DNA of 50,277 bases, counting the filler, from Catajapyx aquilonaris (taxonomy: Eukaryota): NCBI GenBank assembly GCA_000934665.2. It is 2 parts of 2 records of this genome, joined end to end, with 100 filler letters (N's around TTAATTAATTAA, not from the genome) between each part and the next. Parts side by side here need not be neighbours in the genome. Positions count along the whole stretch, not along the records: positions 25,161 to 50,277 come from JYFJ02005427.1; 1 more part is not named here. One strand, given 5' to 3'. The notes beneath the pieces were generated by a model that searched no databases, was not told the DNA's origin, and saw nothing but the letters and a program-made list of their open reading frames with translations. Position numbers and translations under genes: made by a program. Of this stretch, positions 7,164 to 50,277 are shown piece after piece. The number at the start of each line of letters is the position of its first letter. Position 1 is the first letter of the stretch.

Positions 7164-7636
7164 CCCTGGAACCGTGACGTGGGGTCTTTTAGGACCCCAA
7201 AGGAATTAAAATGCATTGCAATGAGTGACCTTGAAATGATAATGACCTGAAACTTGGTGTATTCCTTTAAAAAACTCCATTTCATGGATCAAATCCAGTT
7301 TCATCATTTTCACACCTACGAAAATGTAGATAAGTCGTCATTTTTGGACCCATGCTCTCGTAATTGTAATTATCTAAGTGCTAATATGCTGTAAAAGAAG
7401 CACCTATATTACTTTATTATTGTGAACTGTTGCTATTTAAAAAAAGTATATAACAGGAAGTGCATGTTTATTTTGAATTAGTGATCATTTTAGGCATTGT
7501 TCAAAGAATGATTGCATATCGATAATACATTGAAAAGTATTATATAAAAATTTTAAAAAATTAAAATATGCCATGGGGTCCTGAAGGACCCCATGTCACA
7601 TTTAATGGCACTTTCAGGCACGTCCCGATTCCAGGG
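7164..7636. mobile_element. piggyBac-like MITE
   Basis: TTAA|CCCTGGAA ... TTCCAGGG|TTAA, with subterminal palindromes GGGGTC..GACCCC near both ends. Confidence 0.8.
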
Positions 7637-10605
7637 TTAACTTTTTGAATAAGCTTAAGTCATTATTTTGAGGTATCTGTAACGTGCATCATTAAGGGAG
7701 ATTTTGAACTTGAATGCCATAGCTGGATTACAATGCTTAAAATTGAAAGGTGAAATGTAAGAGTGAATGATTTGTGAAGGTGTTGTGGAAGGCTCAGTTT
7801 CAGCTTTAATTTCTATAAGTGCCACCAATACATTCTCATATATTTACCACTGTGTTACGGCAAAATTAATACCAATGGGGTGAAAGTTTTGGTGTCTGAG
7901 GGTTGCTTTTTTGTCATATAAAGGGGGTCAGTAACTGGAGGATATTCTGAGATAAAAATTTTTATTGATGCTGTAAAATTTTACATAAATACCATATTAA
8001 ACATCTGTATGTAACGAAAATCAGTAACTACAATCAGGATCATTAGACATCTACATCATTTTTGCCTGCAAGGCTTCAGTGCTCTGAGCAGTGTCTATTA
8101 AGTTTTGGCAGCCCACCCGGCAACTCCTAAACTCCCTCTCTTTTTGCTTGCGCTTAGCAAGTCCCCTAACCCCGGATGTGGAGCCCTGTACCAAATCACA
8201 TTCAGGCTGACGACTTCTGAACTGTTCTTAACCTACTTAGTTGTGAGTTCTCATACAGCCCTAGTTTACGGATCCACAGCACCAGCCACCCAAATCACAT
8301 TCGGGTTGCTGGTGCTGTGGATCTGCAAACTGGAACTGAATGGGATTTGACACTTTAGGTAAGTCCAGTACGGTTCGGAATGCGATTTGGTATAGGGCTC
8401 CACATGTGTGCATGAGGGACTCCACCTCCAGGGATATGGGACTTGCTCAGCACCCAGCCTTCCCCATAAGGCTAGATAGGAGTTGGGGGNGGGGGGGGGG
8501 CGAGTTTTGGTTTTGTTAGCATTGGCAGTGTATGAAATATACTGCAGGGCGTCCCACTTTGCAAGCAGTGATGTGGGATGTTTTGTAGAGGATATTCCTA
8601 TGTATACAGTATAAGCAATGTGTGTGGGGTAACATAATCAAGACTTAATTGCTTTTACACACTATAACTATGCCTTGAAGCCTAAAATGATGCAGTCGTA
8701 GAACAGGCACATGGATCACCTTACCTGAGGAAACTCCAGGTATTACTGACCATCTTGTATACTTGCCCAAACACAAATAATTTGGCCACTTTGAATTTTG
8801 GCAGTTCGATATTCATTTGAAGAGTGGAACATCCGCTCCTCAAATGTCATCTAAGGTGCCAATCGATTCCTGCTGGAAAGTGTCAATCGTACGTCAAAAA
8901 CGTGTTTAAAGTTAAAGGTAGGGTAACAGCAATAATCCGATTCAAAAAAATACGTCTGCTCCCGACACGCCAATTTTTTGAATTTCGGGACACGGTTTGC
9001 CACGTTCGACGTAGGAAAAGACGCTTGATTTTTTTCCATTTTGTTTTTTTTTAAACGTTTTTTTGAAGGTCGATGACTGTAGTGCCCCCTTAATACAGTA
9101 CTTGTGAATGCAGTGCCACTTTTAGTGTCCGTCTGGTCCAGGATGGACCCTTTCCAGTAGGAACCTTCCTGGCACCCTAAGTACCCGTTTAGGAGCGTGG
9201 AACATGTCTCTTCAAATAAGACAGCCAGAAATTCAAGATGACCGAATTATTCTGTGTTAGGACCAGTAGTGCCCCTAGTATGTTGTCATCCCATAGCTAT
9301 CTAGTGATCATAGTTTGACTAAGCATTGTACTATGACTGGATGGCCAATTTACTTACAACTGTGTGTTGTCAGTTGCACATAATTAGGCCGTTGTATGAT
9401 TCCACATTACCACATCATTGAGATGAAAAGATTGTTTCCCCAAATGTATCATGTTATTCCAATTGTAGTACCGAATTTGAAATACCGAAGTAAAAAAGAA
9501 ATAAAGAGTGAGATTCTGGATCTTGGTCAAGCTTACATCCTGTAACAGTGTAACCTGTTGTCAGCATACAAGAGAAATTCGCTGTCCAATTTTGTCAGTT
9601 TGAGCTCTCCATACCAAGAAGTACCGTAGCATTTTCTGTGATACATCTGCTGGTGAAGTCAATTTAATTCATAGCCAGCCAGCAACCCAGGATTTTATGT
9701 TGTCACTACCAGGTAAACAAGTGCAAGTCAAATCTTTGCTTGGAATCATCTTGAAACCAGTTGTTGTTGCTGTTATTGTTATTATTTTATTTTATTTTGG
9801 TTGGGGGGAGGGGGGGATTGTGAATTTTCCTTGTATGTCCACAATATATTGACAGTTAGCCTTTCAGATAACAGTCACTCTGGCTGATTGACATTTTCCA
9901 AAACTGCAGCCTCATTTTGCAAAATGCATGGAGCTAATAAGCTTTATTATCGCTTGGAATTGCCACTTCTTGGTAAAAGTAGAACTGTTCCATTACTCAG
10001 CTAACAGGGGAAGTGTCAGAGATGACACTCGTAAAGCACACATTTTATTACATCATTGGAAAGAGCTTATTATTCTGATTACAATGGGTCTTACAAGAAC
10101 TGCTACATCGCAGCCGTTTTAAGAGAAAATCGCTTTCATTGGTGTGGGGCAAGTATGTAAAGAAAATGCCCCTAGACAATAAAAGAATGATCTTGTGGAA
10201 CTCGATGAAGACAGATCCAAGTAGAGTCATCCGCACGTGCCTAACACACACATCCTAGGTGTGGAGGAGCTAGTACCTGACAGGTGGCCGCAATGCGAGG
10301 AATGTTTGGCATCTGCAAAGAAAATGCAAGGAACATTTTAATGTGCAGGTAGATGGAGCCAAAGAGATGAATCACTGCAGGGTTTAATGTTTGATAACAG
10401 ATTTAAGTTAGTTTGCTGGGACTTTTTATGCACAATTTCCTTGGCCATAGTAACACACACTATTACAAAATATATCCCTTCCCAGTTGTAATTAAAAATG
10501 GTTTACACTGGGCATAATGGTAGGTTCATTATTACAATGAAGATAGGACTATCTAACCATAAGAATTAACATTTATAGTATAATAATAATTATATTAATA
10601 ATAAT

Positions 10606-10865
10606 TCATACCCCGTTATCAGCCTTTTCCGGCTCTTTAGGGGGGAAGTTTGCTTTGCCTAGAACTCTTTGCTTTTCGTTTTACTGTGCTCTTTGGGATA
10701 GGATAGGGACGGAAGGAAGCGGCTGTGGCCTATTAATTACGGAAGCAACTCCGGAAGTTTCCTGGAAAGACCCTGGGAAACCACAGAAAACCACAGTCAG
10801 AGTTGCCAGCCCCGGGATTTGATCCCAGGACCTCCCAATTAGCAGTCGGACACCATATCCCCTCC
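10606..10865 (-). mobile_element. tRNA-derived SINE, family C copy 1
   Basis: Homologous to 43695-43870; B-box-like GGATCAAATCCC on the minus strand; 3' end GATAACGGGGTATGAA followed by an AT-rich tail. Confidence 0.7.
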
Positions 10866-11072
10866 TCCAAACTGCTTTGGTACATTTATAGTATAGTGAA
10901 TATCATAAGGTGATACTCTGAGCTGCAAATACATAAATGCAGAACAGTAACGCCCCTAGCACATACAAAGCATAACAGCACACACCTTGCAGTGGGGCAA
11001 CATAGGATCCATTGCAACATGGCAGGGTAGGTGAGCCAGGGGGTTTGGCACCTATACATACCTTCATTAATA

Positions 11073-11240
11073 CTAATGAGGGTGGTGACGATGTGGATGC
11101 GCCAATACTGGCCCCTGCTGGCAGTGTGTACCAGGCTGTGTGAGGGTGTGCTGGGGAGTGCAGTTGGCAGCATCATCTTGGCTGCACAGCTTTGTAGGCT
11201 TGAAGATATTGTATGGAGACACGCAGTGAGGGAGTGTCAC
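11073..11240 (-). pseudogene. Orphaned exon encoding the second half of the A1CF/RBM46-type dsRBD
   Basis: After a CAG acceptor it reads VTLPHCVSPYNIFKPTKLCSQDDAANCTPQHTLTQ, resembling A1CF ITIPAL...FTPPKLSAFVDEAKTYAAEYTLQTL. It lies downstream of the stop at 12344. Confidence 0.55.
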
Positions 11241-11488
11241 CTGGAAGCATCCCGTTATTTGAATTCATGATCATTATTTATTGTTTTGGCCATTATATCA
11301 TGATTGTGATAGTCAAGGAATAGTGTTGTCCACTGAAAGCAGCAGATTGCAAGGTTGAAAGGCATGTAATGGTGATGCATGCCAAAATGTCAACAAAGTT
11401 CTGAGACTATTATACTGCTAGGCCATTTTCCATTTACCACCATCTGTGAACAACTTGCTCAACAAGCATAATGTTAATTATGAGCTTA

Positions 11489-12333
11489 CAAGGGACAGTT
11501 CCCAGGTGATAATGACGGATCTTGATGAAACTTAACATGCTAGTACAGAACAATATATGATAAGCAAAAATGAAATATTTCGGGCTGAGGCCAATATTTG
11601 CAAAAGTTATGACGTCTTAAAGTGCCAAAAATAATACATTTTCATACACAATGGGATTACATTAGCGACCACATAATTATAATGACATTGAAGTGTGTAA
11701 ACAGTTTTTAGATTTTTTCTCATCGGAAAATTAGTACTATAGAACGGCTCTGTCCGTCCGTCCGTCCGTCCGTGGACAGGTATCAAGGCCTAAACAGTAA
11801 GAGATAGCGACAAAAGGTTTTCATATTCAGATTAAGCCTGACCAAAATAGGTTTCATGGTCAACTTCCAGTGACCCGCCACTTCCGGTATTCTGGGTTCA
11901 CTCTATCTGCACAAGTCTACTTTAAGGGCGGTTTAGAAAACCAGAAATGGTAGGTCACCGGAAGTTGACTATGAACCCTATTTTGGTCAGGCTTAATCCG
12001 AATATGAACAGTTCCGTTCGCTATCTCTTACTGTTTGGCCTTGATACCTGTCCACAGACGGGCGGGCAGACGGACAGAGCCATTCTATAATACATTTTTC
12101 TGATGAGAAAAAATCTAAAAACTGTTTACACCCTTCAGTGTCATTACATGTGGTCACTAATGTAATCCCATTGTGTACGAAAATGTATTATTTTTGGCAC
12201 TTTAAGACGTCATAACTTTTGCAAATATGGACCTCAGCCCGAAATATTTCATTTTTGGTTATCATATATTGTCCTGTATTAGCATGTTAAGTTTCATCGA
12301 GATCTGTCATTATCACCCGGGAACTGTCCCTTG
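11489..12333. mobile_element. 845-bp foldback element with TTA TSD
   Basis: About 400-bp inverted arms: TTA|CAAGGGACAGTTCCC ... GGGAACTGTCCCTTG|TTA, with an internal (GTCC)n tract. Confidence 0.9.
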
Positions 12334-12343
12334 TTAGTTTCAT

Positions 12344-15300
12344 TTAAAGAAACAGCTGCATGTTAGTCATTTCCAGACTGATATTCCTGGAATGGGGCAT
12401 GCAGCTTGTAAACGGGACACCCCCCCCCCCCCAAACCCCCCAGTTGTTATTGCACAGCTCCTTCAGTGCCTACAATAATAGGCAAACATTGAAAGCAATG
12501 CATAATGTGGTGGGTTATTAGGTGCAAAAATGCCCATCTGAACAGCAGACGTACATAATTGGCCTGAGTGTGAATGGGTTACGTTAATTACGTAAAAATA
12601 GTTTCATGCCAGAATGGAGATCAAACATGCTGATATACAAGTGAAGGCATGAAAAAGAGTGTAAGTTAAAACTCTAAGAGTATGGTATATATACTTATGT
12701 AAACATACCTGAGAGTGAGGCTTGTTGTTTAGGCTTAGGCGACCCAGATTGGCAGTGATGTCATGCCCACCATAGAGCCCTGCAGCTCCGCAGGTACTCC
12801 TCCAAGTTGGTGAAACAGAGGAAGGTCTAAAATGAATGCAGGAATATGATGACATTTCAATTTGTATATTGTTGAACTGCAATGAAGGCTTTTACTGAAG
12901 TAATTTTACTTGCACAAGAAGAATTTGGCTGCTGCAAATTATGATGATCATGACAACAAAAAACGAAACCCAAATCAGCAGATGATAATGTTATCAGGTA
13001 TGGTAAGTTAAATGATCAGTTTTTCAAAAAGGCAAGGCTGTTTTGTAGCATGGTGTGCAGCCCTTAGTGAATAGGATGAATTCGTGTGGCTGTTGCCTGT
13101 GGAACTTGAGTGAATAACTCTATCACTTATATATGGTACCTTCCTTATGGTCACAAAGTGCATATCATGTTAGGATGTGAGAAGTTACCATTTTTTTGAA
13201 GAAATGTTCAATAATGACTTTGGCTAGTGGTCCTGTGCCCTTTAACAACAAATGAGAACTTAGTAGTGTCTTTTGGATGTAACAGAAATACTTGAACACT
13301 CAAGGTTACATAAGTAGGATATCCAAATTAATGCAAAATATACTTGCAAAATGTTACTAGCTGGCCTGCCCGTAAGAGGAGATCTGAATTTAACTAATGT
13401 TGAATATCAAGGTGCTACACTAGTACCAGCTCTTGCTAGTACTAGTAAGGGAGATTGGGGTCGGTTGTAACACTTTTTAGTCTGGATTTTTGAATTCAGT
13501 TGCATATGCATTTAGTCAAAGGTTTATGATGTGGTGGAAATAAGCCAACATTCCTCTTTGTAAAATTAACATTATAAAATTTTACGATTTAAGATTTATA
13601 GATTTATAAATATTTTTCCAAGGCATGGCAGAGTGTTACAACCTACCCCATCATAGGGGCGGTTGTAACAGTGGGCAGGGTCGATTGTAACACTCTGTCT
13701 TAAATGGTTAATGTAATATGGAAGAACAGTTCACACCCACTCATAATCTCTACAATATATTGTCTTAGAGCCTACTTGATCCACCTAGGTTACTCTTTAT
13801 CTCTCGATACACTGGAATTTATTCAGCAGGTAAGTATTACAAGAGAAATGATTTTTTATTGATATAAAATTTCAACAAACTGGTTATGAGGCTTTATTGC
13901 ACAAAAAAATATTTATTTCTACTCTCAATATTCTGTCAGATATATAGAGCTCTGTAACATCTGTACACAGATTTGACCTTTTCTCATGATTTTACCATGT
14001 TACAACTGACCCCAAGGAAGCTGTTACAACTGTCCCAATTGTGTGTTGTCTTGTAGATATGCTCACTACTTTTTAAACTGTGCACATGATTTGGACATCC
14101 ATATACTGTCAGGGTGACCCCACTAAAGGAACCTTTCACATCATACCAAAAGGGCAATTCAAGGGGACCTCTACCCTCCCCATGTAATCACTTGATCACT
14201 GCCACTCAAAATGTTTGGAACACACCTTGACTGGTGTTTTGCATATAGAAGAACAAAAAACATAAAAGGAGTAGCCTAAGTTTTGCCTGGCTTAGAGGCC
14301 ATGGCCTGTGCAAGTTTCAGCTTCAGCTCAGGACCTTTCAAACGTACGGTATTTATTATTTGCGATGTTACAACCGCACTGTACCCTGTTACAACTGACC
14401 CTGATCTCCCTTACAGTATTTCAAAAGTTTCAAAAAATCAGGATGACATTAAAAATCTCTTGCTGATGGTAAGGAAGCTAACAGATTTTCAATCTATAAC
14501 ATGTTTTCAAATCATTGCATTGCTTGGTTTAAGAATTTTAACCGAGAAAAAATATACATATGAAATGTGCTCTCACTGATACCAGAGAAGCTTGTTTGAA
14601 TAGATTTTCTTTTTGGATTCATCAAAAACATGTGAGAGATTTTATGCCTGTCATTTCAAGTAACCAGAATATCAAGAAAGAAATATAATAACATCCTTAC
14701 CTCTGTACAAAGCCATTTTGCCAGGGGACTGCATTGGCGGGGTTAAAACCAACACTGGGTGTATACCCATGGGGAATCTCCTGAGGATTGCGACTGACAC
14801 TTTGGTTACTACGCTTCTGTAGTCTGCGGTGATCGTACTTGGCAACTGGTTTGGCCCATGCCACCTCAATGCTGACCCCATCTATGATTGCACCTGATTT
14901 TCCCCATTTCCCAAGAAGCAAAAAGAGCAGAAGTGAAGATTATGAAAACTATTTAAACACTCCATAAGAGTAACAATTGATTTCAAATTCAATTTTTGGA
15001 AAAGAAACTTGCCTTTCATCCTCTGCAGGGCTTTTTCAGCTGTCTGTCGACTGACAAAGTGAACATATGCAAAATCACGCACTTTCTTCACCTTCTCAAC
15101 GCATCCAGGCTCCGAGGTAGCTTCAAATGCTTCCTTGAGTGTCTCCTCAGTGGTGGTCAGCATCAGATTGCGAATGTACAGCACTGTCACCTAATTCAAG
15201 TATCAAGATTGCATTGGTATTGGGCCAAACAAGTTAAGTCCAGTGGAAACATGTCTATAACAGACTCTGGTACTGAGAGAACTTTTCATAAGGAAGCTTC

Positions 15301-18046
15301 AGTTAGGTCCAGTTTGGTGCAGGACTTTCAATGTATTTCTTTGGCATTAAGAAAAACACCTTTTCAGTACATAGAAATTTTAGTGGAATGGAGGGATTCT
15401 ATAATTATGAAGGTTTTGCTGTGCATGAAACACATCAGCAAAAGTAGCAAAAGGTACTTTGAGACAAAAACTGTAAAGTATGCTAAATTAAATTATAAGG
15501 ATACATCATGCTAAATTGTTATGATTGACAGAGAGTTCCTGAATATTCATATTGCTGAATATAACGACATGTTAACCATTGTGAACAATAGCAGAAGAGA
15601 ATATATGCATTGTTATTCATAACAAGGATTCAGGGGTCGAAATATTCGGATGCAAAGGTGCAATTTGCAATCCAAAATTGTCATCTACACTCCAAACTGA
15701 GCCTTGGAGTGCAAAGTTTGCACTCCAGTTTATCCTGCTTTTAAACATGGAAATACCCAGTAATAAAAAATTGAGCACGCGATCTAAGTATTTGCACTCC
15801 AGGTAAAAGTCTGGAGTGCAAACTTTGCATCTGGACAAAAATTTTAAAATCCGACCCCTGGGATTGGGACTTACATCATATTATTTACATGTCCTAAGTA
15901 TACAGCAGGGTGATCCAACTTTATAGGCCACACAGTTATTGGAAAAATCGCGTAAGCTGCTACCTTTTAAGCTGCTACTTGCTAAGAGTTACTTTCTCGA
16001 GTGTCTGAAATAGCACCTGGTGATATTAGGTCCAATGCCCATGTACCAATTTATGACCTACTTATTGACACAACTGGGTCTGTCCGGTTCGACGGATTAG
16101 CCCTCTGATTGGCAGCTAGTCACCTCATCTGAATCGAGTGAATCCCTCCAGCGAACACCAAAATGGGCCCTTTTGAAGGCCAACACATGAATCAGTTTGG
16201 AGATGGGGAAATAAAAGAGATTATGACACCTTTCCATTTAAGGGTCGCAACAGTTCGCATCCGATACCCCTCGCGATTGACCCATTTGGCCAGTCACAAC
16301 CCGGCAGACGACCTGTTTCCCACGGTGGGTGACCCTTATTTTTTCCCTCATTAATTGGTACATGGGCATTGGACCTAATATCAGCAGGTGCTATTCCAGA
16401 CACTCGAGAAAGTAACTCTTAGCAAGTAGCTGCTTAAAAAGTAGCAGCTTACGCGATTTTTCCAATAACGGTTGGGGCGATAAAGTTGGATCACCCTGTA
16501 TACAATACATTTTGATCAGGTGTATCCTACTTACGGTAGCAGGATTTACTCGGGCCCACTCAACACCAATATGGTGGCCCCAGAGTGCTCTAGCTCCTGA
16601 CAGTTGATTCTTGGCCACTGCAGCTGCTCGGTGGCTTTCATACTCCACAAATGTAAACCCCTGGTTAATCTCACCTCCAGGTAACATGTATACAATGCAC
16701 CTAACCACTCCTTCTGTCAAGCGGGAAAACTCTTCCAACACTTCTTTCTCCCCCTTGCTCCTCGGGATCCCACATACATACAGCTGACAATTGTCAGTTG
16801 AACGAATCACCTCAAGTTGTATTTTAGGTCTGATCTCGACACCACTGAGGTTCTTGATGGCTTTTATGGCATCGTCACGCGTGGTGTACATGACATAGGC
16901 ATAACCCCTGTTGGCCCCGCTGAAGTCCATCATAAGTCGTAGCTCATAGATGGGTCCGATCGTCTCGAAGTGAGGTACTAGCTCATCTTCGAAACAGTCA
17001 CGAGGAATCTTGCCAACAAACACCTCGCAGCCTTTGGGTGGTGGGGAGCCCTTCCAGTCAGGAGGAGGGCCACCATACCTCCGCTGACCATTCTCCTGCA
17101 GTCATATTAATAATATTTATATTTATATTTATGAATATTATCATAAAAACGAACCCATAAAAAGGTACATGAGTCCATATTGTTGTAGCACATATGTACT
17201 ATCTAATTTATATGTATAACCCCCACACACCCACACACACACACAGCCTTGTCTTCACTAAGGAGTGGGGACGTGAAAATTCAACTTTTCGAAGCTAGTG
17301 TAAACTAACCTAACCTAACCTAACCTACCCTTCCCTAACCTACCCTTCCCTACCCTACCCTAACTAACGTAGGCTGAGAAAAATGGACTTTTGTGAAACC
17401 CTACAAATGAAAATAGTGGGGACATGTCCCCACTGATTTGGGCATGTCCCCACTGTAAGCCTAATAGTACACATCGCGTGTGTGAGACTGTGGGGACAGA
17501 CGTCCCCACAGCTACAGTAAAAGCACAAACTTCCGTCCCCAGACCTTATTGAAGACAAGAACACAAAAAGTGAGGTAATCTCACGAGCAAAAAGATGAGG
17601 ATTCCCTGGAATTCACAGAGGACAGAGATGTCAGTTGTAGGACTTGACTACACAGTAACACACATGAAGACCTTCATGGCCTGCTAGGTAGCCTTGGTGC
17701 CAAACTTAGTGCCTTTTTGCTCACTCCAGTGTTTCTCTCATCATTAATTCATTATCATCACCTAACTAACCTGCACTATGTTGTAGTCGGTCCTCTTCAT
17801 GAGGGCCAGCAGGGCCTCGTCCTTGTTGATCACCCCCTGCTGCTGTTTCTTCTTCACTCCCTGGGCCTTTCCTCCTTTCTTCGTGGCTCCAACCCCGTCG
17901 GACCCCGCTGCAGTCTTCTCATACTCTGCCTTGCTCGCCCTCGCCCATCCGGCGTATCTCTGCGCAGCATCTGCCCATGCCTTGCTCGCCAGGCCGTCGT
18001 CGTATCCCTGAGCATCCTCCTTCTTCTGCCCCACCTCGGCCATCAT
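12344..18046 (-). CDS. RBM46/RBM47/A1CF-family three-RRM RNA-binding protein (exons 18046-17771, 17095-16535, 15190-15013, 14893-14701, 12826-12709, 12469-12344)
   Basis: Family motifs [84 protein letters not shown] and IEVAWAKP are present, and all splice phases are consistent. The paralog cannot be assigned; the start codon and last exon are tentative. Confidence 0.85.
13448..14411. mobile_element. Non-autonomous TIR element with TGTTACAAC subterminal repeats
   Basis: TA|AGGGAGATTGGGGTCGGTTGTAACA ... TGTTACAACTGACCCTGATCTCCCT|TA; the motif recurs several times internally. Confidence 0.75.
15631..15860. mobile_element. MITE with 5-bp TSD
   Basis: GGATT|CAGGGGTCG ... CGACCCCTG|GGATT, with internal TGGAGTGCAAA/TTTGCACTCCA repeats. 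Confidence 0.7.
15906..16498. mobile_element. Tc1/mariner MITE with ~145-bp TIRs
   Basis: CAGGGTGATCCAACTTTAT... / ...ATAAAGTTGGATCACCCTG|TA. The terminal 12 bp are identical to those of the element at 36365-37730. Confidence 0.85.
17246..17561. mobile_element. (CA)n-associated MITE with CCTAA tract, copy 1
   Basis: TIR CTTGTCTTCA.TAAG..TGGGGACG; internal GTGGGGAC/GTCCCCAC palindromes and (CCTAA)n; abuts (CA)n. Confidence 0.75.
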
Positions 18047-19053
18047 CCGATGGGTCCTACCTGACCAAACTGAGCTCAACACAGCGGGGCGACTCCCCTT
18101 GACGATGTCCGGTTGGTCGGCCCTGATGTTCCCGCTGTCTGACAGGCGGATGGAGGCGGATTCAGTTGCACGATGGTCCCACAGGTGTAGAGGGGAGGAG
18201 AGGGGGAGGGTGGAAAGGGACGAAAAGCTGTGTTACCGGTTGCGTTCCTGCCCCCTAGCGACGGTATGCCCATAAAGATACAAAGATAAAAACTTATCTA
18301 TTATTTATTATTTATATGTTTTTATTTATTATTTATATGTTATTTATTTATATCTCAATGGGGATGCCCCCTACATCACTTATCATGGAGCTCTCTCGGC
18401 CCGGCTATTTCAAATCAAAATACATTGGCGCAATGGCGCCAGGTTTAAAATATGCTTTATTAACCTGCATTGTCCCGAGAATACTCTCGATGTGAAAACT
18501 TGCAGGATAGAAAATTACAAAAATTTCTATCACCGAAACACATACATTTACAGCAATAATAAAGCAGGATGTGTAGGCCTATACAGTTGAAGCAGGTAGT
18601 AGGCCTACATGGAAATATATCATTTGAACATAATTTTTAAATCCAAGTGTGCAGAATATGTCTATAGCTGCAATACCGCTAAAAATTATAGAGTAGGGCC
18701 TATAATACAGTGTGTTTCACTAGGGAGTCCCCACATATATATTTCTTAACATTCTACCTAGAAACGTGATGTTTGGTTTAAAAGTTACCTTAGTTCATGA
18801 GAATGTAGCTCTATTTCCAATAAATGCTGGGATTCACCTGCAACGACTTCCATTCGCACTCGAATGCGACTCGACGCGACGCTCCTTATTATCGAATAAG
18901 ATCCTCCGCAGCATAATCTTCATAAATGGTCCGGATTGCTGCACTTATATGTTGCTTTCCGAGTCTTCTAACCTCGAGGCTCACTGTTGTAGGCACAATT
19001 CTTCAAATAATTATGTAGAGGATCTTAGGACTATATGTTCAATATTATTTGTG

Positions 19054-25040: not shown

Positions 25041-25160
25041 GCCTCCCCAAATAAAAGGTCNNNNNNNNNNNNNNNNNNNNNNNNNNNNNNNNNNNNNNNN
25101 NNNNTTAATTAATTAANNNNNNNNNNNNNNNNNNNNNNNNNNNNNNNNNNNNNNNNNNNN
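25041..25160. other. Artificial contig-join spacer
   Basis: N runs surrounding TTAATTAATTAA (25105-25116), a six-frame stop linker. Confidence 0.9.
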
Positions 25161-26507
25161 GTGGTGCATGTCGGTCAGTACACACCGGGTAAATCCATAC
25201 CCGAGTTGTTCCCAGATTATTCAACAAATCTCCACGACAGGTTCATAAACGGAACTCTCGCCTTTGATTTGTCTAAATCCGAGCTGCAATTCATGTTGGA
25301 CAATTCGGTGCCAATGTTTGGTTGCCTGATGTTCCTGCTTTTCGTAAGTGACACCCTTAATTTCCACTGGAATCTGGAAGCAACGCAAGTAGATGATGGC
25401 GAGATTCCTGATATGTTGTTGCCTGATGGTAATTATACGGGACAAACCGGTGACATCATCCTAAGGAAAGCGGAGATAGGCTTTATAGTGACAACATTTG
25501 TCAGCCGGGTTGTTCAAGTTGTTTTTCCCGACTATTTTGTGCAGATGACATTTTCCACGCGGACTTCGATGCCTAGTTATTCCTGGAATTCCATTTTGAT
25601 GCCTTACACTCCTGAAATGTGGGTTTTAATATTATTAGCCACTCTAATATGCAGCTTTGTCCTTTTCGCCCTGCTAAGAATAGAGAGCACTTTTCGCAAC
25701 CCTTTTCCAGACAAGGGTCCGTCCTATTCCCTCTTCCTCTACTCGGCCAGATACCTGTTTTCCACCCTGATCGAGGAAAACCCCAACACCATCCCCCGAG
25801 GTGACCCCTCCAGACTCTTCATCTCCTTCTGGTGGATCTATTCCCTGGTCATCATCATCGGGTACGAAGCCTTGTACTTCGGATTCTTAGCGTCTCCAGT
25901 TCAGGAGGATTTGCCTGATTCGTGGCAAGAACTCAGTGGGAAAAGTGATAACTGGCAATGGGGAACCTTCGAAGTAGCTAAGCCTTACTACTCAAATATT
26001 TTCATAGACAACGATTTGGAGTACTTTCAGCCAATTGCTAACAACATGCAGGATCAACCTGATTTCACTGCTTGCGTTCGTAAATCGATAGAGGAAAATT
26101 ACGCTTGCATAGCTCCAGAGGACTTCTTGTTGGCATTTGGGACTCAGTACATAGACCAGGCTGGAAAGATTCCCCTTCTCATTGCTCGAGACGCTGTCAT
26201 CTTCATATTTTGTACCTTTATTTTGGACAAGCAAAGTTTGTTGGGTCCAATCTTCAACAGAATGACAGTTTATTACATAGATTCGGGACTGATGGCCAAA
26301 TTCGACAAGTACTTGGAGTACACCTGTCTGATGATAGGTCTTAGAGAAGCCAGAAAGAAAAAAAGATGGTATCTCCAGTCAATGGCTTTGAATTTTGACC
26401 AGCTGAGAGCAGTCGTGTATTTTCTCGTCATATTCTGCTGGGGCTGTGGGATTTTAATTTTCATCGCAGAGAAACTGTTCTTTAATATTTTTACAACACT
26501 GGTGTAG
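25161..26507 (+). CDS. Divergent ionotropic receptor (IR), intronless, 5' end lost in the gap
   Basis: iGluR/IR layout: S1 (GNYTGQTGDIILRKAEIG), ILMPYTPEMW before M1, RLFISFWW...IIGYEALYFGFLASP (M2/M3), S2 ending DSGLMAK, LNFDQL and M4. The ORF starts at the first base after the gap. Confidence 0.85.
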   Translation: MVHVGQYTPGKSIPELFPDYSTNLHDRFINGTLAFDLSKSELQFMLDNSVPMFGCLMFLLFVSDTLNFHWNLEATQVDDGEIPDMLLPDGNYTGQTGDIILRKAEIGFIVTTFVSRVVQVVFPDYFVQMTFSTRTSMPSYSWNSILMPYTPEMWVLILLATLICSFVLFALLRIESTFRNPFPDKGPSYSLFLYSARYLFSTLIEENPNTIPRGDPSRLFISFWWIYSLVIIIGYEALYFGFLASPVQEDLPDSWQELSGKSDNWQWGTFEVAKPYYSNIFIDNDLEYFQPIANNMQDQPDFTACVRKSIEENYACIAPEDFLLAFGTQYIDQAGKIPLLIARDAVIFIFCTFILDKQSLLGPIFNRMTVYYIDSGLMAKFDKYLEYTCLMIGLREARKKKRWYLQSMALNFDQLRAVVYFLVIFCWGCGILIFIAEKLFFNIFTTLV

Positions 26508-27927: not shown

Positions 27928-28080
27928 GTGTATCAACAGTTCAAAAAGAATTGTCCCTCGCGTCGAGCGGGCAGCCACGCGTCAGGATGAAAGCAACCTG
28001 TTAACTCGTTCCTTTCATCCTGACGCGTGGCTGCCCGCTCGACGTGAGGGACAATAATTCTTTTTGGACTGTTGATACAC
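27928..28080. mobile_element. Palindromic MITE
   Basis: GTGTATCAACAGTTCAAAAAGAATTGTCCCTC...GAGGGACAATAATTCTTTTTGGACTGTTGATACAC, a near-perfect hairpin. Confidence 0.8.
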
Positions 28081-28735
28081 ATGTTCTTAACTTTCCCATC
28101 TGGTGCATAAACATAGAGACTGTTAGGGCTTCCCACACGTGATTCTCCAACAAACAACTGTTAGTGAGAGAAGCAGGGCAGGTGAAGCAGCATCGAAGCT
28201 TCAACACAATATCCATCTTGCCATGCTCCTGACCACTAATGATGACAGCAGTCTCATTGCAAGAAGGTTGATTGAATCGACCACAATGCTCACCTTGTGG
28301 TCGCACTCAGATGTGCTTGGTGTTCTTCCTCAGTCTCTTGGTCCCTCCTTTGCCGAACTGTACGTGTAAGTGATGAGCTTCTGCCAATGCTACTTAGTCA
28401 GATATTAACGGGGTTATTCCAGACCATGTAGGTCCCTAAACCCCGGGCCCCACATAGGGCCTATATCATCACTCTAAGTCCCTTTCATCGTGGTCCGCCA
28501 GGGGCGGACCACCCGTTCGCTTCCGAATCGAACCCAAGCCGTCATAGGATCGAGACTCGACCATCGGGACGACACCCAGAGGAGCCGTCCGTCCCACGAT
28601 CGAGTCCCGAACCCGTAAGGTCCGGAGCTCGTCCCAATCTCGTCCGACAGGCCTTTCGACTTTTGCCTGGTCACCCAGGCCTCCGTCGAGTCCCAAAGGG
28701 AAAGGTGCCAATGCTACTCCGTTTTTTGGGCCCAT
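28081..28735 (-). mobile_element. Internally deleted Helitron RepHel remnant
   Basis: After removing the 28395-28705 insert, three in-order fragments remain: N-terminus MGPK(K)RSSIGRSSSLTRTVRQRRDQETEEEHQAHL (one-base frameshift), RPQGEHCGRFNQPSCNETAVIISG..DIVLK, and the Pif1 helicase end CFSH*QLFVGESRVGSPNSLYVYAPDGKVKN. Confidence 0.75.
28395..28705 (-). ncRNA. Retroposed copy of a structured RNA ending in a box C/D motif
   Basis: 13-bp TSD TGCCAATGCTACT (28382-28394, 28706-28718); box C GTGATGA (28472-28466) and box D CTGA (28401-28398); closing stem ACTTAG/CTAAGT; many hairpins whose G-U pairs favour the minus strand. Confidence 0.6.
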
Positions 28736-29254
28736 CTTAAAGTGGGTGGGGAGTTGTCATAGATAATTATGTACACCGGTTGGGTGCAGGGACTGAATGT
28801 AGTAGTGAACAGTTATGGCATGTGAAAATGCATTGAGAATGTGGAGGTACAAACGTTACAAAGTTTTTTTTTAAAAAAGTAACAAATGCAAAAGGATGGG
28901 AAAGTACATGACACAGTACGTAACACAGTTCGGAAAAGGAGAACAACGACAGGTTGCCTGAGCAAACAAACCACAACCGCTATTCTTACATACAGTACAT
29001 GCCGCTGCAAGAAATGTTACTTTTTCAAGGAATTTAAAGCCTCACGCTTCAGTTTCCGAAAATGAGCCTAACTCCCACAACACGCATGTTCCAGAATCTT
29101 TTCACTACTCGGGCATCAACAATTAACATAATATCAACATCAGTAACAATTTATCAACAATTACTCTTTTTCCAAGTTCGCAATCCCTGAAAATTCCCTT
29201 GTGCAACAATACCTAGCAAATTAAATAGATTTCCTGCCACCCAACATTGCATCT

Positions 29255-30073: not shown

Positions 30074-30297
30074 GGGGAGACGGAGTGGCGCTGCGGTAAC
30101 GTATGCGCCCACGGATGTTAAGGTCCCGGGTTCGATCCCAGCCCGGGGACACCCCCTTCATCTCGTGCAGAGTTCAGGGTCACCTCTGGGTTCGTCTCGG
30201 GTGGTATTTCCAACAGACTAAACCACCCGGGGGGAGTTCACTAAAAATGGCCACATAAAGACATTGCACTGCACCTTGCACATCCCCTCCTGTCATC
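30074..30297 (+). mobile_element. tRNA-derived SINE, family B (head and body)
   Basis: A-box TGGCGCTGCGG and B-box GGTTCGATCCC; the body matches 5572-5697. Confidence 0.75.
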
Positions 30298-30416
30298 CCG
30301 CCCGTGGGCCCGGGCGCTACGTTATCAGGTCCTGTATATATAATAGGCCTACTAATGTATGTGTTATCAAGATCCATGCAATATAACTCGGAATGAGGTT
30401 CGTGCACTACCTGGGT

Positions 30417-30449
30417 AATAATAACAATAACAAGAACAACAACAACAAC

Positions 30450-30486
<37 letters not shown>

Positions 30487-30487
30487 T
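30417..30487 (+). repeat. Compound (AAC)n/(AAT)n microsatellite
   Basis: Directly visible trinucleotide runs. Confidence 0.9.
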
Positions 30488-30499
30488 ATTTATTATTAT

Positions 30500-31115
30500 A
30501 TAAGAAGACCAAGAGTACACCAAGTACTGGTCAAACTTGTCCATCAAGTCCGCATCTCTATATNATATAAAATATAAAACATGAGTTTGTTCAGGATCGG
30601 TACAGTGTTGGTCATATATCGAGGCAACCACCAGCGACATTTTCCGAAGCGGCAGAAGAAGGAATCGAAGACAAGCATACTTACAAGCCGGGCGAGCAAG
30701 TTTCCTTCTTCTGCTGCTTCGGAAAATGTCGCTGGCGGTTGCCTGGATATATGACCAACACTGTACCAACAAACTGTGTTTGTCGGTGATCCAAACCACA
30801 CAAGCAACTCAGCGTTGTTGGACGGAACAACCGGAACTTTTCCAGCTTTATCTATGTACTGGACACCGAAAGTGAGCAGTGTGTCTGCTGGAGCTGTGTA
30901 TGAAAAATTGCTCTCTATTGATATTGTGATATTGTCAGGCTGCTCGACCATGTTGCCTGTGGGCCTGATCCTCATTGGTCATTAAAATGCCTGAAAAATA
31001 AGGCTTGGCTAATTCAAGCGTTCCCCACTGCCTGGCGTTGCGGAGATTGCTGAGATCTTGGTATGTCTTCGGTAAGTCTTCAAGCCTGGGAGATGCTAAA
31101 AACCAGGAGATACTC
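30500..31115 (-). pseudogene. IR pseudogene fragment paralogous to 25161-26507
   Basis: FLASPRLEDLPKTYQDLS..QWGTLELAKPYFS, TFGVQYIDKAGKVP, DKHSLL and DADLMDKFDQYL match the IR at 25161. Contains frameshifts and a MITE insertion. Confidence 0.85.
30603..30763. mobile_element. Palindromic ~160-bp MITE, copy 2
   Basis: TA|CAGTGTTGGTCATATATC...GATATATGACCAACACTG|TA, inside the IR pseudogene. Confidence 0.85.
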
Positions 31116-36400: not shown

Positions 36401-39400
36401 CTAATAACTTTCAAACGGGTACACCTACCGAAGTGAAACAAGGCTCAAAATGTGCGTGGATTCATTAGAATTTTTATGGGGGACACTTCTTGCCGTTGTG
36501 GCGCTGCTAGCCAGTGCAGCTTGACACTAATTGCTGTAGTGGCGCTGCCAGCAGGAGAGGCTTGGCCAACATGTCGGACCGACTGTCTGTGAGTGACCGT
36601 GTGCGCATCGCTAGCGGTATGGAGGTATGGGACAGTGTCATCAAGGTTCAGCGATGGTGGCGCAGAGAACGAGGTGTCAATGCCACCCTGCAGTCAAGGA
36701 CAGTGAAGTGTATTCATGCCAATTTGCTGGCCACTGGTTCTGTTGCCGACCATCCCAGGTCCGGTCGTCCGAGATCGGTGGTCACTGCAGAGGCGTCGTC
36801 CACTGCTGCCGCGGCTTTTCAAGCCAGTCCTAAAAAGTCATTGCAACAGTATGCAAGGGAAAGTAGTACCTCATACGGTTCAGTGGCCAGGATGATGAAA
36901 ATCATCAAGTGGAAGCCCTGGAAGCCCCATTACGTGCAAGCACTGACTCTCAAAGACTGCGATGTGAGGATGGAGTTTTGTGAAGGAATGATATCGTGGA
37001 TCAGCGATGAACCGGAAATTGTGGACATCATTTTTTCTGCTGAGGCCGTTTTCCATGTGGGTGGTTTCACCAACAGGCCATTACTGGGCACCATCGGCAG
37101 AAAACCCCAATTTTGTCATGGAAAAGCTGCAGTCGCATCCCAGTGTCACTGCCTGGTGTGGTCTTCAAGGGAATGTGCTGATAGGACCGTACATTTTGGA
37201 GGAGACTATGAACGCCGACCGATATGTCATTATGTTGCGTGAGTACGTCATGCCCATAGTCTCAATGTGGCCAGATTTTCAAGAAGTGCATATCATGCAC
37301 GACGGGGCCCAGCCACATTCCGCGTGGGTGAGCAGGAACTTCCTGGCAGAACAGTTTCCTGGACGAGTCATAGGTCGTAGGGGAAACGTCCAGTGGCCAC
37401 CACGAAGTCCTGATTTGACACCTCTGGACTTCTCTATCTGGGGCTATTTGAAGGAGAAAGTGTACGCACAGAAGCCCCGCACCACAGCGCAGCTGCAGGC
37501 AGCCATTAAGAACGAGTGCGCCGCTGTGCCAGCCGACATGATAGCCCGTGCGACATCCGCAGCGAAACATCGGTTTCAAACCTGTGTGGACAATGCTGGG
37601 GCACATGTGGAGGTGGAATTAAAATCCTTATGGATCCACGCACATTTTGAGCCCTGTTTCACTTCGGTAGGTGTACCCATTTGAAAGTTATTAGGAAATA
37701 AAAATAGGCACTTACTTCTGGATCACCCTGTACTTCCCCGCCCTTTGCACATTATGTCACACATACTCCCCTCCCCTCTGCACACAACGTCTCACACACA
37801 CTGCCCCTTGCCCCTCCCTCTATGCACTGACGTCATCTAGGGATCAGGGGGCACGCAGGAAAACTCGAGTGTTACAGAAAAGCGTTACAGCCGGGCCCTT
37901 CCACGCCTTCATGCCCCCGCCATTATAGTCGAGAAAAGTGAAACATAACGTAGGTTGAGCCCGCAAAAGCTGCAGCTCATGTCCCGACACAACATAATGC
38001 AATATTTTTGTGCATGGACAGGCAGTTGTCCGCTACGAATGTAAACCTGGAATGCGCTGTACGGCAATCCATAAGCAGCTGATGGAGGTGTATGGCCTGG
38101 ATGTAATGTCAGGGAAAATGGTGTGGATCTCTGCTCTCTTCCACACTCTTCACACCCATCACAGAGTCATTGACACCATCTCCGCACCAGCTGCTTACGG
38201 ATTACGGCACCACGCATGACATACACACAATTTTAGTTTACAACTTTATCGTTAATCCATGTTTATAACACACGCATCTTTCCTGGAGTAATATGAATGT
38301 GCACGCTCTACATTATGTATGAATGAGAACAATTATCATGTCAGAGATTTGTTGCGAATTGGCAGAACAAACCGCAAAGAAAAGTTGACCCTGACCTTCA
38401 GATGAGGATGGCAGTTTTAAAAACTTCATGCGACAGGAAACCCAAATTCAGGGTAAATAAACAATCACATAATTCATGTAGACAACAACTGTAAGTCCAC
38501 ACTAGTTGACATACAAAATTAGTGTTCGCAACTGTAGTAGCAGTAAATCATTTCATATGGATGTCTGGATAATCAAGATTCTATGCTTCATGTAAATTTG
38601 TATAAATCTGGCATGGTTTTAGCTGAAAACGACTGGCGACTTTGTAGCAAAGTGCTGACATTTTGACGCTGGTTACTTGGCCCACCTTGCTTTTCCCAGA
38701 CGCATCTCCTTCGTCCATGTCGAGATGCAGGTCCTCCTCTGCGTCATCATCGTCATCATCCTCGTCCTCCACCTCCATTTCGTCATGGTCACCTTTGTGA
38801 CGGATGGCTCCACTTCCAGCATGAGACCCAGCCACCGAAGGGCTCCCACCTGCCAGTCCTCTGTCTCCCATGGCCCCGCTTACACCTACTCCGCTGCCTC
38901 CCCATCCTCCAAAGAAAGGGGGCATCAGTGTGAGGTGGTCCACTTCAGGAGGTTCGGACACTGAATGCAGTCGGCACAGCTCCTTCAGGAGGATTTTCAC
39001 TTGGACCAGAACCTGCGGGACATTCACAATTACGACATAGCCTGGACGCAAATTCACTATAACCACTCAGTACAATAAAGGAGTAAACATTTCAACGTGA
39101 AACACTTCCAGCACGATATCACACAATCTGACAGCATTTTCGAGAAAAGTGAAAGAATTTTAGCGCATAATTGATTTCAAATTGGGCGATCAGCAAGCAG
39201 AATTTATCTGGCGTTCCAGTATCCAAGTAGCACAGTATCGATCTTCAAATATCATTAAAGAAGATACGTTCATAGAGCATGTGACACTAATGCAGGCCAA
39301 TCCTTTAAGCCCCACCTCAGCTCAATTGTTGGACTGCAAGGCTGAGTATTGGATTACAATTACTCATGATTATCCGCAATCAATTTACACACGGCAACAT

Positions 39401-45732: not shown

Positions 45733-47691
45733 TCACCAGAGGCGACAGAGCTTCGCACGTACGCAAATTTCTGCCAAAAAGACACACGAGGCCAACGCAA
45801 TTCCAAAAAATAAAATGAGTAAAGTTCCCTCAACGTGGCGCCTTGTGAAGAGTGTGTCCTTTGTTAGCAAGAAATAATCTAGATTGCCTTTACTTTTTTG
45901 CTCACGGGATTTGTAGAAAAGCAAATGATTCTTCCACATTTCATCCACATGCTTCTCTATTCCAATGGTATTATAAATCTGCATCCACTTATCGAAATTA
46001 TCGGCATACACACTGTCTTTAATCACGATGACTGACACAAACAAAATGGCAAAATTATCAGAGGAGATGAATGTCTTGGTCTCTCCGTAATCTTCTGCTA
46101 TCGGAGAAAGGTTCCTCAACACAGCTTCAGATTCGAAGCATACAGTGTCGGCGGTAAACAGATCCTGAATGCAATCATCTCTTTCCTTTACAGCAGACAT
46201 TTTAGAAATTAAATCGTGGTATTCCTCTAGTCCTGGTGCACTTGAGTCTGCAGCGGAAAGATATGACAAAATCTCTGGAGTAGTTTTAATGGAGAAAGTG
46301 GATCTTCTTAGCTCGTCAATGTTGCGGGGAATTATTTCCTTAGGAGGAGACACTAGTAAATCATAGAGCTTACTTCTGTACCCTGTGCCAATAACAACGC
46401 AGAAGTATATCCACATTAAAACGAAGATTTTGTGAGATGAAAATTTTGGAAATGGCACACCTTGTTCCAGGGCAATTTTCGAGAGATATGAAGATATAGA
46501 TAAGACTGACCTAAAAGGAAGGAAATTATTTTCAGGCTGTCTTGTATTTGTTTTCGAGAGTAATGATAAAAATCCCACGGAAATAATGAAAGAAGCAACT
46601 GAAATACACCAAGCAGTTAGTGTGTAAGGCATGACCATAATTAAAGGCGTGATTATTGGGCGCGGCAGCCGTGCAAGAAATGTGAATCTGAACATGTCAT
46701 GGGGTGACGCGAAAGAAGCTACTTTGTAGAGAATTTTCATTATTGGAGCGTTCGGCATAAATGCTAATACTTCAGTCCTAAAGTCATGAAATAGTTGCAC
46801 CAGTGCCCCTTCATCCTGCAAAATTGCGTCAAAACCAATGTAATCCACCTGCCACTTGAAATTAAGTGCTTTTCCCAAGAAGCACATATGTTGATACTTC
46901 TCTTGAGAGGTGCCGCACATTGTTGAATTGCCCTCCCACCCGAAAATGCCTTTCAGAAACCTTCCATTGAAATTTTGGGCAGTGTCTTTGAACATCAATT
47001 CTTTTGTTTCAGCATCAGGCGTGTCCTCGGACACTGAGAAGAATTCAATTTGTGGGTCCCAATCATCACAATAGAAACAGATCGATTTGCAGAGGACCGT
47101 CCCGTTTTGGGAAGGAACAACTGCGACCTTGAACTTGATTTTGGACCATGGTCTCTGGAGGAGATGGTCCTCCTCATCCTCCTCCTCCTTATCTTATAGC
47201 GAATCCCGAACCCACAACACGAATCTGTCCTTGGCCTTCCTTTCCTCCAGAAGGGGGTGTTCCTCAGGGTCCAGAAGTTGGTTCATCATGTCCTCGTGGT
47301 TTTGGGTGCAGGTCACCACCAGAAACAATGCGCACTTGGCCACTCTGCGGTCCTCCTGGAAAGTGCTGGACACCACGTCATCAGAAGGTGTTGATGGTGC
47401 GTCGCCACAATTCCAGGCACTTCGGGACATGGTCGTGATCAGGAGAGGTCGTCCAGTCGATGACATGTTTGCGAGGAAAGTCTGCAACCCTCTCGGGATG
47501 TGACCGCCAACGTCATGGGCCACCACCACCGGACATTCAATGTCCATAATACTATTGTCTTGCAAGAGTCTAGTCATAAACGTTGGAATTATCCCATCAG
47601 TACCACAGGTGCCGTTGAACAGAATGATGGCTGCAGAAGAAGTATTAACAGACACCAGCAAGAAAAATTTTGTTAGTATTAACTGCTTCAT
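45733..47691 (-). CDS. Divergent intronless IR, 652 codons, with one in-frame TAA at 47196-47194
   Basis: Signal peptide MKQLILTKFFLLVSVNTSSA; the two listed ORFs are in the same frame and linked by 53 sense codons including CKSICFYC; then MVMPYTLTAW, GTGYRSKLYDLLVSP, NTIGI and M4. Confidence 0.8.
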
Positions 47692-49300: not shown

Positions 49301-50178
49301 TCACCACAAGCGACAGAACTTCGCACGTAGGCAAAATAATTCAGCCAAAAAGACAAAGGAGGCCGACGCACTTCCAAAAAATAAAATGAGAAAAGTTCCT
49401 TCAACATGGCGCCATGTGAAGCGTGTGTCCTTTGTTAGCAAGAAATAATCTACATTTCCTTTTATTATTTGCTTCTCCGCATTGTGGTAAAGCAAATCAT
49501 TCTTATCAATTTCCTCCCAGTGTTTCTCTATTCCAATGGTATTATAAATCTGCATCCACTTATCAAAATTATCGGCATACACACTACCTTTAATCACGAC
49601 GACTGACGCATAGAAAATGACGAAATTGTCAGATGAAATGAATGTCTTGGTCTCTCCGTAATCTTCGGCTATCAGAGCAAGATACCTCAACACAACATCA
49701 CCTTCGAAGCATACGGTGTCGGCGGTAAATAGATCATCAGCGCAATCCTCACCTTCCTTTACAGTTATTTTAGATATGAAATTGTGGTATTCCTCTAGTG
49801 CATCCGAATCCGCAGTGCCGAGTAATTCCTTACACCTGGGAGAAGTTGTAATAGAGAAAGTGGATCTTCTTAGCTCATCAATGTTACGTGGAATTATTTC
49901 TTTAGGAGGAGATACTAGCAAATCATAGAGCTTACTTCTGTATCCCGTACCAATGACTATGGAGAAGAAAATCCACATTAAAACGAAGATTCTGTGATAT
50001 GAAACTTTTGGATGTGGTACACATTGTTCCAGGGCGATTTTAGAGAGATATGAAGATATAGATAAGACTGACCTAAAACGAGGGAAATTATCTTCAGACT
50101 GTCCTGTATTTGTTTTAGAGAGTAATGACAAAAATCCCACGGAAATAATGAAAGAAGCAATAGAAATACACCAAGCAC
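49301..50178 (-). pseudogene. IR paralog of 45733-47691 interrupted by an insertion
   Basis: Highly similar to the neighbouring IR from AWCIS to RLW*; homology ends abruptly at TTA 50179-50181. Confidence 0.8.
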
Positions 50179-50181
50179 TTA

Positions 50182-50277
50182 CAAGGGAAGTGTCTGTAGG
50201 GCCATCGGCCAATCGGCCCGAAAATGACACTAGGGGTAAATCGCAGGCCAGAAATTCATTGGTGAAAGTAAAAAGTT
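50182..50277. mobile_element. End of an inserted element (TTA|CAAGGGA terminus)
   Basis: The paralogous empty site reads CCAAGCAG-TTA-GTGTG, while here it is CCAAGCAC-TTA-CAAGGGAAG. Same terminus and target as 11489-12333. Confidence 0.6.

Follow-up and report, generated by a model that had tools for sequence, protein, structure and literature searches.

Short retroposons without a Pol III-type head, as well as non-autonomous LINEs, have precedents (Kojima 2015, PMC4494074; Kojima 2020, PMC7245038), among them non-autonomous LINEs such as Bov-A, SINE-like elements with GC-rich heads, and Sadhu. The platypus element snoRTE/PlatSINE1, as recounted in PMC7245038, joins a snoRNA-derived head to an RTE tail. 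Mammalian snoRTs carry a TSD of about 14 bp (7-19) and insert into other mobile elements (Weber 2006, PMC1687206); they start at the mature snoRNA 5' end, have an A-rich tail, and are few copies of known snoRNAs (PMC1687206). In the crocodilian SINEU elements, the heads are derived from U1/U2 snRNAs, and small nuclear RNA modules thus do get built into short retroposons (Kojima 2015).

Here we analyzed a stretch of DNA of 50,277 nucleotides from the genome of Catajapyx aquilonaris, called the window below, and focused on a GC-rich insert within it. We assign a probability of about 0.68 to the reading that this insert is a copy of a multi-copy family of short, non-coding, LINE-dependent, non-autonomous non-LTR retroposons. 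Its RNA strand ends in a box C/D-like arrangement, which places it beside, and in several respects apart from, the systems above.

Results

A true insertion in a decayed repeat

Contigs from four sequencing runs of the same organism (X1-X4; two samples, two studies) were aligned to positions 28150-28950 of the window (801 bp), which gave 243 aligned contigs for X1, 199 for X2, 249 for X3, and 9 for X4. The element lies between two exact copies of a 13-mer (Table 1), and a search of the whole window found this 13-mer at those two places only. By our own estimate, about 0.4 such 13-mer repeats within 500 nt are expected by chance per 50 kb, and the repeat by itself is weak evidence of insertion. 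We take it as a true insertion with a TSD because contigs of paralogs of the interrupted repeat join 28394 to 28722 or 28723, skipping 327-328 bases and holding 3-4 letters between. Two such contigs are present in X1, four in X2, and three in X3, the three runs being one sample. These flank paralogs have a single copy of the 13-mer and no insert.

Table 1 Features of the inserted element and its target, with positions counted along the window.
Feature	Position	Strand	Detail or basis
Inserted element copy, probable retroposon	28395..28705	minus (RNA sense)	311 bp, GC-rich; source Catajapyx aquilonaris
TSD, left copy, 13 bp	28382..28394	none	Exact repeat; empty-site paralogs joining 28394 to 28722
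TSD, right copy, 13 bp	28706..28718	none	Exact repeat; edge of contig pieces
ORF of the interrupted host repeat, Helitron-related, decayed	28001..28306	minus	HMMER relatives
5' domain, 228 nt, closed multibranch fold	28478..28705	minus	Closing helix 28695-28701 with 28478-28484
6-bp hairpin, GUGA tetraloop	28665..28680	minus	In MFE and centroid
Long imperfect rod-like hairpin including GACUCGAUCG/UGGUCGAGUC	28526..28634	minus	In MFE and centroid
Perfect 10-bp hairpin, 3-nt loop	28490..28512	minus	Repeat search and MFE
3' module, 88 nt, terminal 6-bp stem 28474-28479 with 28392-28397	28392..28479	minus	Fold and depth
Box C-like GUGAUGA	28466..28472	minus	Motif scan and simulation
Box D-like CUGA	28398..28401	minus	Motif scan and simulation

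On the minus strand both flanks lie in one frame across the site, reading ...GPKKRSSIG/RSSSLTRT... with the slash at the point of insertion. A sequence-only reading of the locus had proposed an exact 13-bp TSD whose removal restores a Helitron N-terminal reading (RSSIGRSS), together with the lack of a poly(A) tail. The duplication is borne out by the repeat search and the empty-site contigs, the frame is indeed continuous, with Helitron_like_N relatives supporting the label, and neither end of the insert has an A-run. Terminal inverted repeats were also not seen by eye at the ends of the insert. The last 2-3 bases of the left TSD may at the same time be the 3' end of the element's RNA (microhomology). 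Other copies are alike as far as 28392/28393 (two contig records), and for this reason we count the terminal stem described below as part of the element.

A full HMMER search with the flanking ORF returned 27 weak relatives (best E 7.9e-09) that have in common a motif of about 37 residues. Ten of the 27 were scanned, and among these two have Helitron_like_N directly behind the matched motif and one carries PIF1; the ORF itself had no match in Pfam, the protein atlas, or the word-indexed protein search. On the strength of these relatives, a Helitron label for the interrupted repeat is reasonable. Summed contig depth over this Helitron-related flank (28200-28390, 28717-28950) reaches about 85,000 in one bin, which makes its family much more abundant than that of the insert.

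An interspersed, multi-copy family

The insert belongs to a family with many interspersed copies in this organism. A one-off retrocopy does not fit, because contigs of this organism carry the element with other flanks and with both edges in common. One X4 contig, for example, spans 28393-28706, differing at 10 letters and one gap, and is unlike the window on both sides. At the right edge approached from inside, 8 of 8 among the pieces listed stop at 28706 and then run on unlike the window; judged by their lengths, the eight represent about six distinct contigs, from two samples. Where the copy in the window departs from the family majority, the majority letter is present in 10 X1 contigs at 28655, 10 at 28663, and 18 at 28436. 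We also observed a 40-nt 3' piece (28392-28431) between unrelated letters and low-depth variants that skip 28452-28517 or 28474-28519. Within the window, no second copy turned up, either by BLASTN with the insert or in a scan of 15-mers allowing 3 mismatches.

Summed depth in X1 is about 1,000-2,600 over 28501-28716 and about 7,500-18,900 over 28393-28500, with error-free single-copy flank contigs at 16-39; because summed contig depth gives no copy number, we read these values only as indicating that copies are many and that the 3' module is more widespread than the 5' domain. The profile is stepped, being flat from 28501 to about 28690.

Past 28706, two X4 contigs share an identical 30-letter extension. 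About 24 of 31 positions there match, by eye, the opposite strand of element bases 55-85. Part of the element would then stand inverted against the 5' end, in a head-to-head pair or as a habit of the family.

Fold and RNA strand

The minus strand of the insert has an MFE of -152 kcal/mol (z -4.99), a value reached by 0 of 100 shuffles, and the plus strand has an MFE of -117.9 (z -3.36). Of the 111 pairs in the minus-strand MFE, 16 are G-U, versus 2 of 93 in the plus-strand MFE, which identifies the minus strand as the RNA strand. The stronger z of the minus strand and a contig depth that climbs towards the minus-strand 3' end are further signs in the same direction. Folded alone, the 5' domain reaches -117.7 kcal/mol (z -4.71), which none of 200 shuffles equalled.

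A G-U preference for this strand and a multibranch domain of about 225 nt had both been read from the sequence, and they agree with the pair counts and with the closed 228-nt fold, respectively. The individual helices proposed in that reading are recovered in part. The MFE contains the UCCCUUU/AAAGGGA closing helix, the CCUGG-GUGA-CCAGG hairpin, GACUCGAUCG/UGGUCGAGUC, and the 10-bp hairpin, but not GUC-GAAA-GGC or the local UCCGGACC/GGUUCGGG hairpin, whose bases are paired otherwise. Some family variants are without the 10-bp hairpin (joint from 28473 to 28520) or have an extra A after 28498.

The copy differs from the family majority at nine sites, all of them transitions. All nine fit the minus-strand MFE, six being unpaired and three paired as A-U/G-U or C-G/U-G; the rod-like hairpin has three paired sites that are unlike the majority and still pair through G-U. 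Random sets of nine transitions fit the minus-strand MFE equally well in 3.5% of trials, and on the plus-strand MFE six of the nine sites fit, which is reached by 75% of random trials. Given that the comparison covers nine sites only and that the MFE was computed from this same copy, it is a weak hint that the master copies may evolve under structural constraint. At six of the nine sites (28588, 28632, 28640, 28655, 28663, and 28664), the plus strand has T where the majority has C, which is A for G on the minus strand; the pattern is strand-biased, and only 28664 lies in a CpG by eye.

A box C/D-like 3' end

The minus strand of the element ends in ACUUAG-A-GUGAUGA...CUGA-CUAAGU, with four further pairs inside the boxes. 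At the sequence level this is the arrangement of a box C/D snoRNA, with RUGAUGA and CUGA, a terminal stem in the 4-6-bp range, and kink-turn geometry. The copy itself was inserted into a decayed repeat, and Rfam gave no match to a described C/D family. The 3' module that contains the arrangement folds at -35 kcal/mol (z -3.27), with two stems flanking the internal loop in which the boxes lie, and it has the highest summed contig depth of the element.

A motif scan of both strands of the window found this single instance of the arrangement. Loose rules (gaps 0-2, G-U allowed, stem of at least 6) yield 0.44 instances per window by chance, so the bare observation of a C/D motif is not significant. 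When canonical geometry and an outer stem of 6 bp are required, 81 of 1500 simulated windows contain it; a further requirement of at least 4 inner-stem pairs leaves 2 of 1500, under criteria that were picked after the motif had been seen. The limits of the RNA-derived insert were defined independently, and the motif lies precisely at its 3' terminus; for that reason we favor a real kink-turn over a chance match, and the motif probably forms a genuine structural kink in the tail. The last 3 bases of its terminal stem are inside the TSD. C'/D' boxes were not seen by eye in the 3' module, and in the 88-nt fold the stretch leading up to box D is base-paired.

For this end of the element the sequence-only reading had claimed a canonical C/D kink-turn arrangement, which is present and is the only one in the window; an overlap of the last 3 nt of the stem with the TSD, which is there, although the stem is kept in other copies; and two hairpins between C and D in place of a single-stranded guide, as in the 88-nt fold.

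Searches for known relatives

Across the whole window, Rfam gave 0 matches at gathering score. With the limit relaxed to E 10, 28300-28800 gave only sul1, at 19.3 bits versus a gathering score of 36.2, which we take as chance. Neither search returned U3, 7SL, RNase P/MRP, 5S, a ribozyme, or a described C/D family; the earlier reading had also not matched the element to U3, 7SL, or RNase P/MRP.

In its length of 311 bp (<700 bp) and its interspersed, non-tandem occurrence, with other flanks and both edges in common, the element resembles a SINE. No head at least 60% identical to tRNA, 5S, or 7SL over at least 60 nt was found by ARAGORN or Rfam, and at this head criterion the element fails the strict SINE definition (SINEBase, PMC3531059). 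ARAGORN predicted 0 tRNA genes over 28000-29100, and no clear A/B boxes were seen in the element by eye. A tRNA-derived head was rejected: GGUUCGAUUCGG is B box-like but is without a T-arm and without an A box (by eye and ARAGORN). As to retroelements with self-cleaving ribozymes (retrozymes and Penelope-like elements with hammerheads, R2-type elements with HDV-like motifs), Rfam at E up to 10 gave no ribozyme family in 28300-28800. A hammerhead/retrozyme was likewise rejected, having neither a CUGAUGA core nor an Rfam match here, and an R1/R2-type element was rejected on the target, which is not rDNA.

Exact-pattern scans with four probes from the element had no match in viral, metagenome, or prokaryote contig collections, and translations of the element had no relatives among longer or similar-length proteins. 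Pfam searches of the ORFs found no reverse-transcriptase gene or partner LINE in the window. A sequencing-run search pointed to no RNA run as a carrier, with 5 of 5 listed rows at or below one third of the sampled words. In the literature searched, the limited coverage of which falls short of proof, we found no description of a C/D kink-turn on a LINE, SINE, or other retroposon tail.

Other features of the window

Three long, apparently intronless ORFs match Lig_chan, at 25113-26507 (+), 45733-47193 (-), and 49301-50275 (-), with Pfam E values of 1.4e-09, 6.9e-04, and 1.5e-06, and a fragment at 30544-30978 (-) resembles the same family by eye. Together they look like a local cluster of ionotropic-receptor-like paralogs. 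The first is cut by N-runs at 25061-25104 and 25117-25160. An ORF at 16391-17101 (-) with two RRM_1 domains (E 7e-24) is probably an exon of a host RNA-binding protein gene. At 36992-37684 (+) there is a weak DDE_3 match (E 1.2e-04, below the Pfam cut-off), a decayed remnant of Tc1/mariner type, and a trinucleotide microsatellite at about 30180-30530 (-) is translated as stretches of I, V, and L.

Discussion

An RNA-mediated, tailless insertion with the minus strand as the RNA strand is supported by these results, and the retroposon reading given at the outset explains them best. The occurrence with other flanks, the deletion variants, the 40-nt 3' piece, and the stepped depth, highest over the 3' module, speak for a modular element mobilized by a LINE. 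The family is either SINE-like or descended from a LINE by internal deletion, with both ends retained, and it is best called a SINE-like retroposon or non-autonomous LINE; an origin of the element in a LINE UTR is quite possible. The full C/D geometry at the exact 3' end (2/1500) is not predicted by a plain LINE-tail reading.

In the mechanism that we propose, the minus-strand transcript would be a tightly folded RNA of about 314 nt, made up of the 228-nt 5' domain and the 88-nt 3' module. The endonuclease of a partner LINE would nick the plus strand after 28394, and the free ...ACT-3' target end would pair with the terminal AGU of the RNA, a 3-nt microhomology. Reverse transcription from the paired end (target-primed reverse transcription, TPRT) would then give the junction observed here, and a second nick 13 bp away would give the TSD. 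The 3' module, with its terminal stem, kink-turn-like loop, and two hairpins, may be the tail that is recognized by the stringent-type reverse transcriptase of the partner. It would be common to more copies or families than the 5' domain, and a role as the recognized tail fits its wider distribution in the contigs.

The C/D geometry at the exact 3' end, with a terminal stem kept in other copies to 28392/28393, is also what would be expected if the copies were dead retro-pseudogenes of a single gene for an abundant, long, cellular box C/D RNA with a structured 5' domain and a 3' end set by its C/D unit, as in U3, the tailless mature RNA having been repeatedly reverse-transcribed by a LINE. The 88-nt unit is of the usual size for a C/D snoRNA, the lack of an A-tail and the 3-nt microhomology fit priming on a trimmed snoRNA end, and for snoRNA retrocopies a TSD length of about 14 bp has been described (Weber 2006, PMC1687206). 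We nevertheless regard this origin as distinctly unlikely. Rfam holds no C/D, U3, or other family that matches even at E up to 10, neither C'/D' boxes nor a free guide was seen (by eye, the region before box D being paired), and the many diverged copies, the deletion variants, and the excess depth of the 3' module over the 5' domain fit a mobile element better. The sequence-only reading had taken the insert for a tailless retrocopy of just such an abundant, non-guide C/D RNA. What stands of this is the RNA-mediated, tailless insertion and the C/D signature at the exact 3' end; the stray copy of a cellular RNA is not supported, given the interspersed, multi-copy family seen in the contigs, and the Rfam searches gave no parent C/D RNA.

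A 5'-truncated copy of a far longer element is also conceivable, in which case the insert would be the 3' UTR of a LINE and its 5' edge accidental. Stringent LINEs usually have structured 3' UTRs without a tail, depth does climb towards the 3' end, where the 40-nt piece also lies, and two X4 contigs continue past 28706 with identical letters. The 5' edge is too uniform for this to be other than very unlikely: all eight listed pieces end at 28706, and depth from 28501 to about 28690 shows no slope. The X4 letters past the edge resemble, by eye, an inverted part of the element and not new upstream sequence, and the translations of the element are without relatives among longer proteins. That both strands fold better than shuffles could in turn suggest a DNA-level event, either a small DNA transposon or break-repair filler with an incidental RNA-like fold. 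This is the least credible of the readings and can nearly be dismissed, given the strong G-U asymmetry between the strands, the lack of terminal inverted repeats by eye, and the 3'-biased depth and truncated pieces that fit reverse transcription. The duplication is also too long, since, to our knowledge, the TSDs of DNA transposon superfamilies are shorter than 13 bp.

The retroposon reading leaves room for a more specific role of the 3' module. It is possible, if unlikely, that the 88 nt form a working box C/D unit, and hence a candidate assembly site for Snu13, Nop56/58, and fibrillarin. As tentative is the corollary that the snoRNP proteins would set and protect the tailless 3' end a few bases past box D. 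The RNA might further be kept in the nucleus or nucleolus, with the LINE reverse transcriptase priming there via the microhomology, a step that we consider equally doubtful. If true, the family would consist of retroposons with a snoRNA tail, in mirror image to platypus snoRTE, or would have a LINE tail that mimics a snoRNA; the literature searched describes no such class. With a functional C/D kink-turn, a mobile element would be borrowing the snoRNP assembly pathway to obtain a stable, tailless template for reverse transcription, and the family would offer a handle on how stringent LINEs choose tailless RNAs. As it stands, the family is ordinary but useful for repeat annotation: its short, non-autonomous retroposons are undescribed and lie in an arthropod-type genome rich in repeats.

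U3 snoRNA has a 5' functional domain followed by a C'/D kink-turn that closes hairpins. The element is similar in that its terminal C/D-type kink-turn encloses hairpins, with no free guide, and has a 5' domain projecting from it; unlike U3, it has no Rfam U3 match and no visible box A/A', is multi-copy, and was inserted with a TSD. Among the retroposons introduced above, SINEU is likewise short and has a module of small nuclear RNA type in place of tRNA, 7SL, or 5S, whereas the element matches no snRNA in Rfam and has its small-RNA-like module at the 3' end. With the snoRTs it has in common the size of the TSD and insertion into another mobile element; however, a snoRT starts at the snoRNA 5' end and has an A-rich tail inside the TSD, and here the 228-nt domain stands ahead of the C/D-like unit, there is no A-run or other tail, and copies are many. 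Bov-A, the SINE-like elements with GC-rich heads, and Sadhu are, like the element, short, non-coding, interspersed, and multi-copy, with a TSD and no A-tail, and they are modular, with the 3' part more widespread than the 5' part. The 3' module here differs from theirs in its canonical C/D-type kink-turn signature, at the level of sequence. Platypus snoRTE is also a retroposon family with a snoRNA-like unit that is mobilized without an A-tail. In snoRTE the snoRNA is the 5' head and the LINE supplies the 3' tail, whereas in the element a 5' domain that matches nothing is followed by the C/D-like unit at the 3' end.
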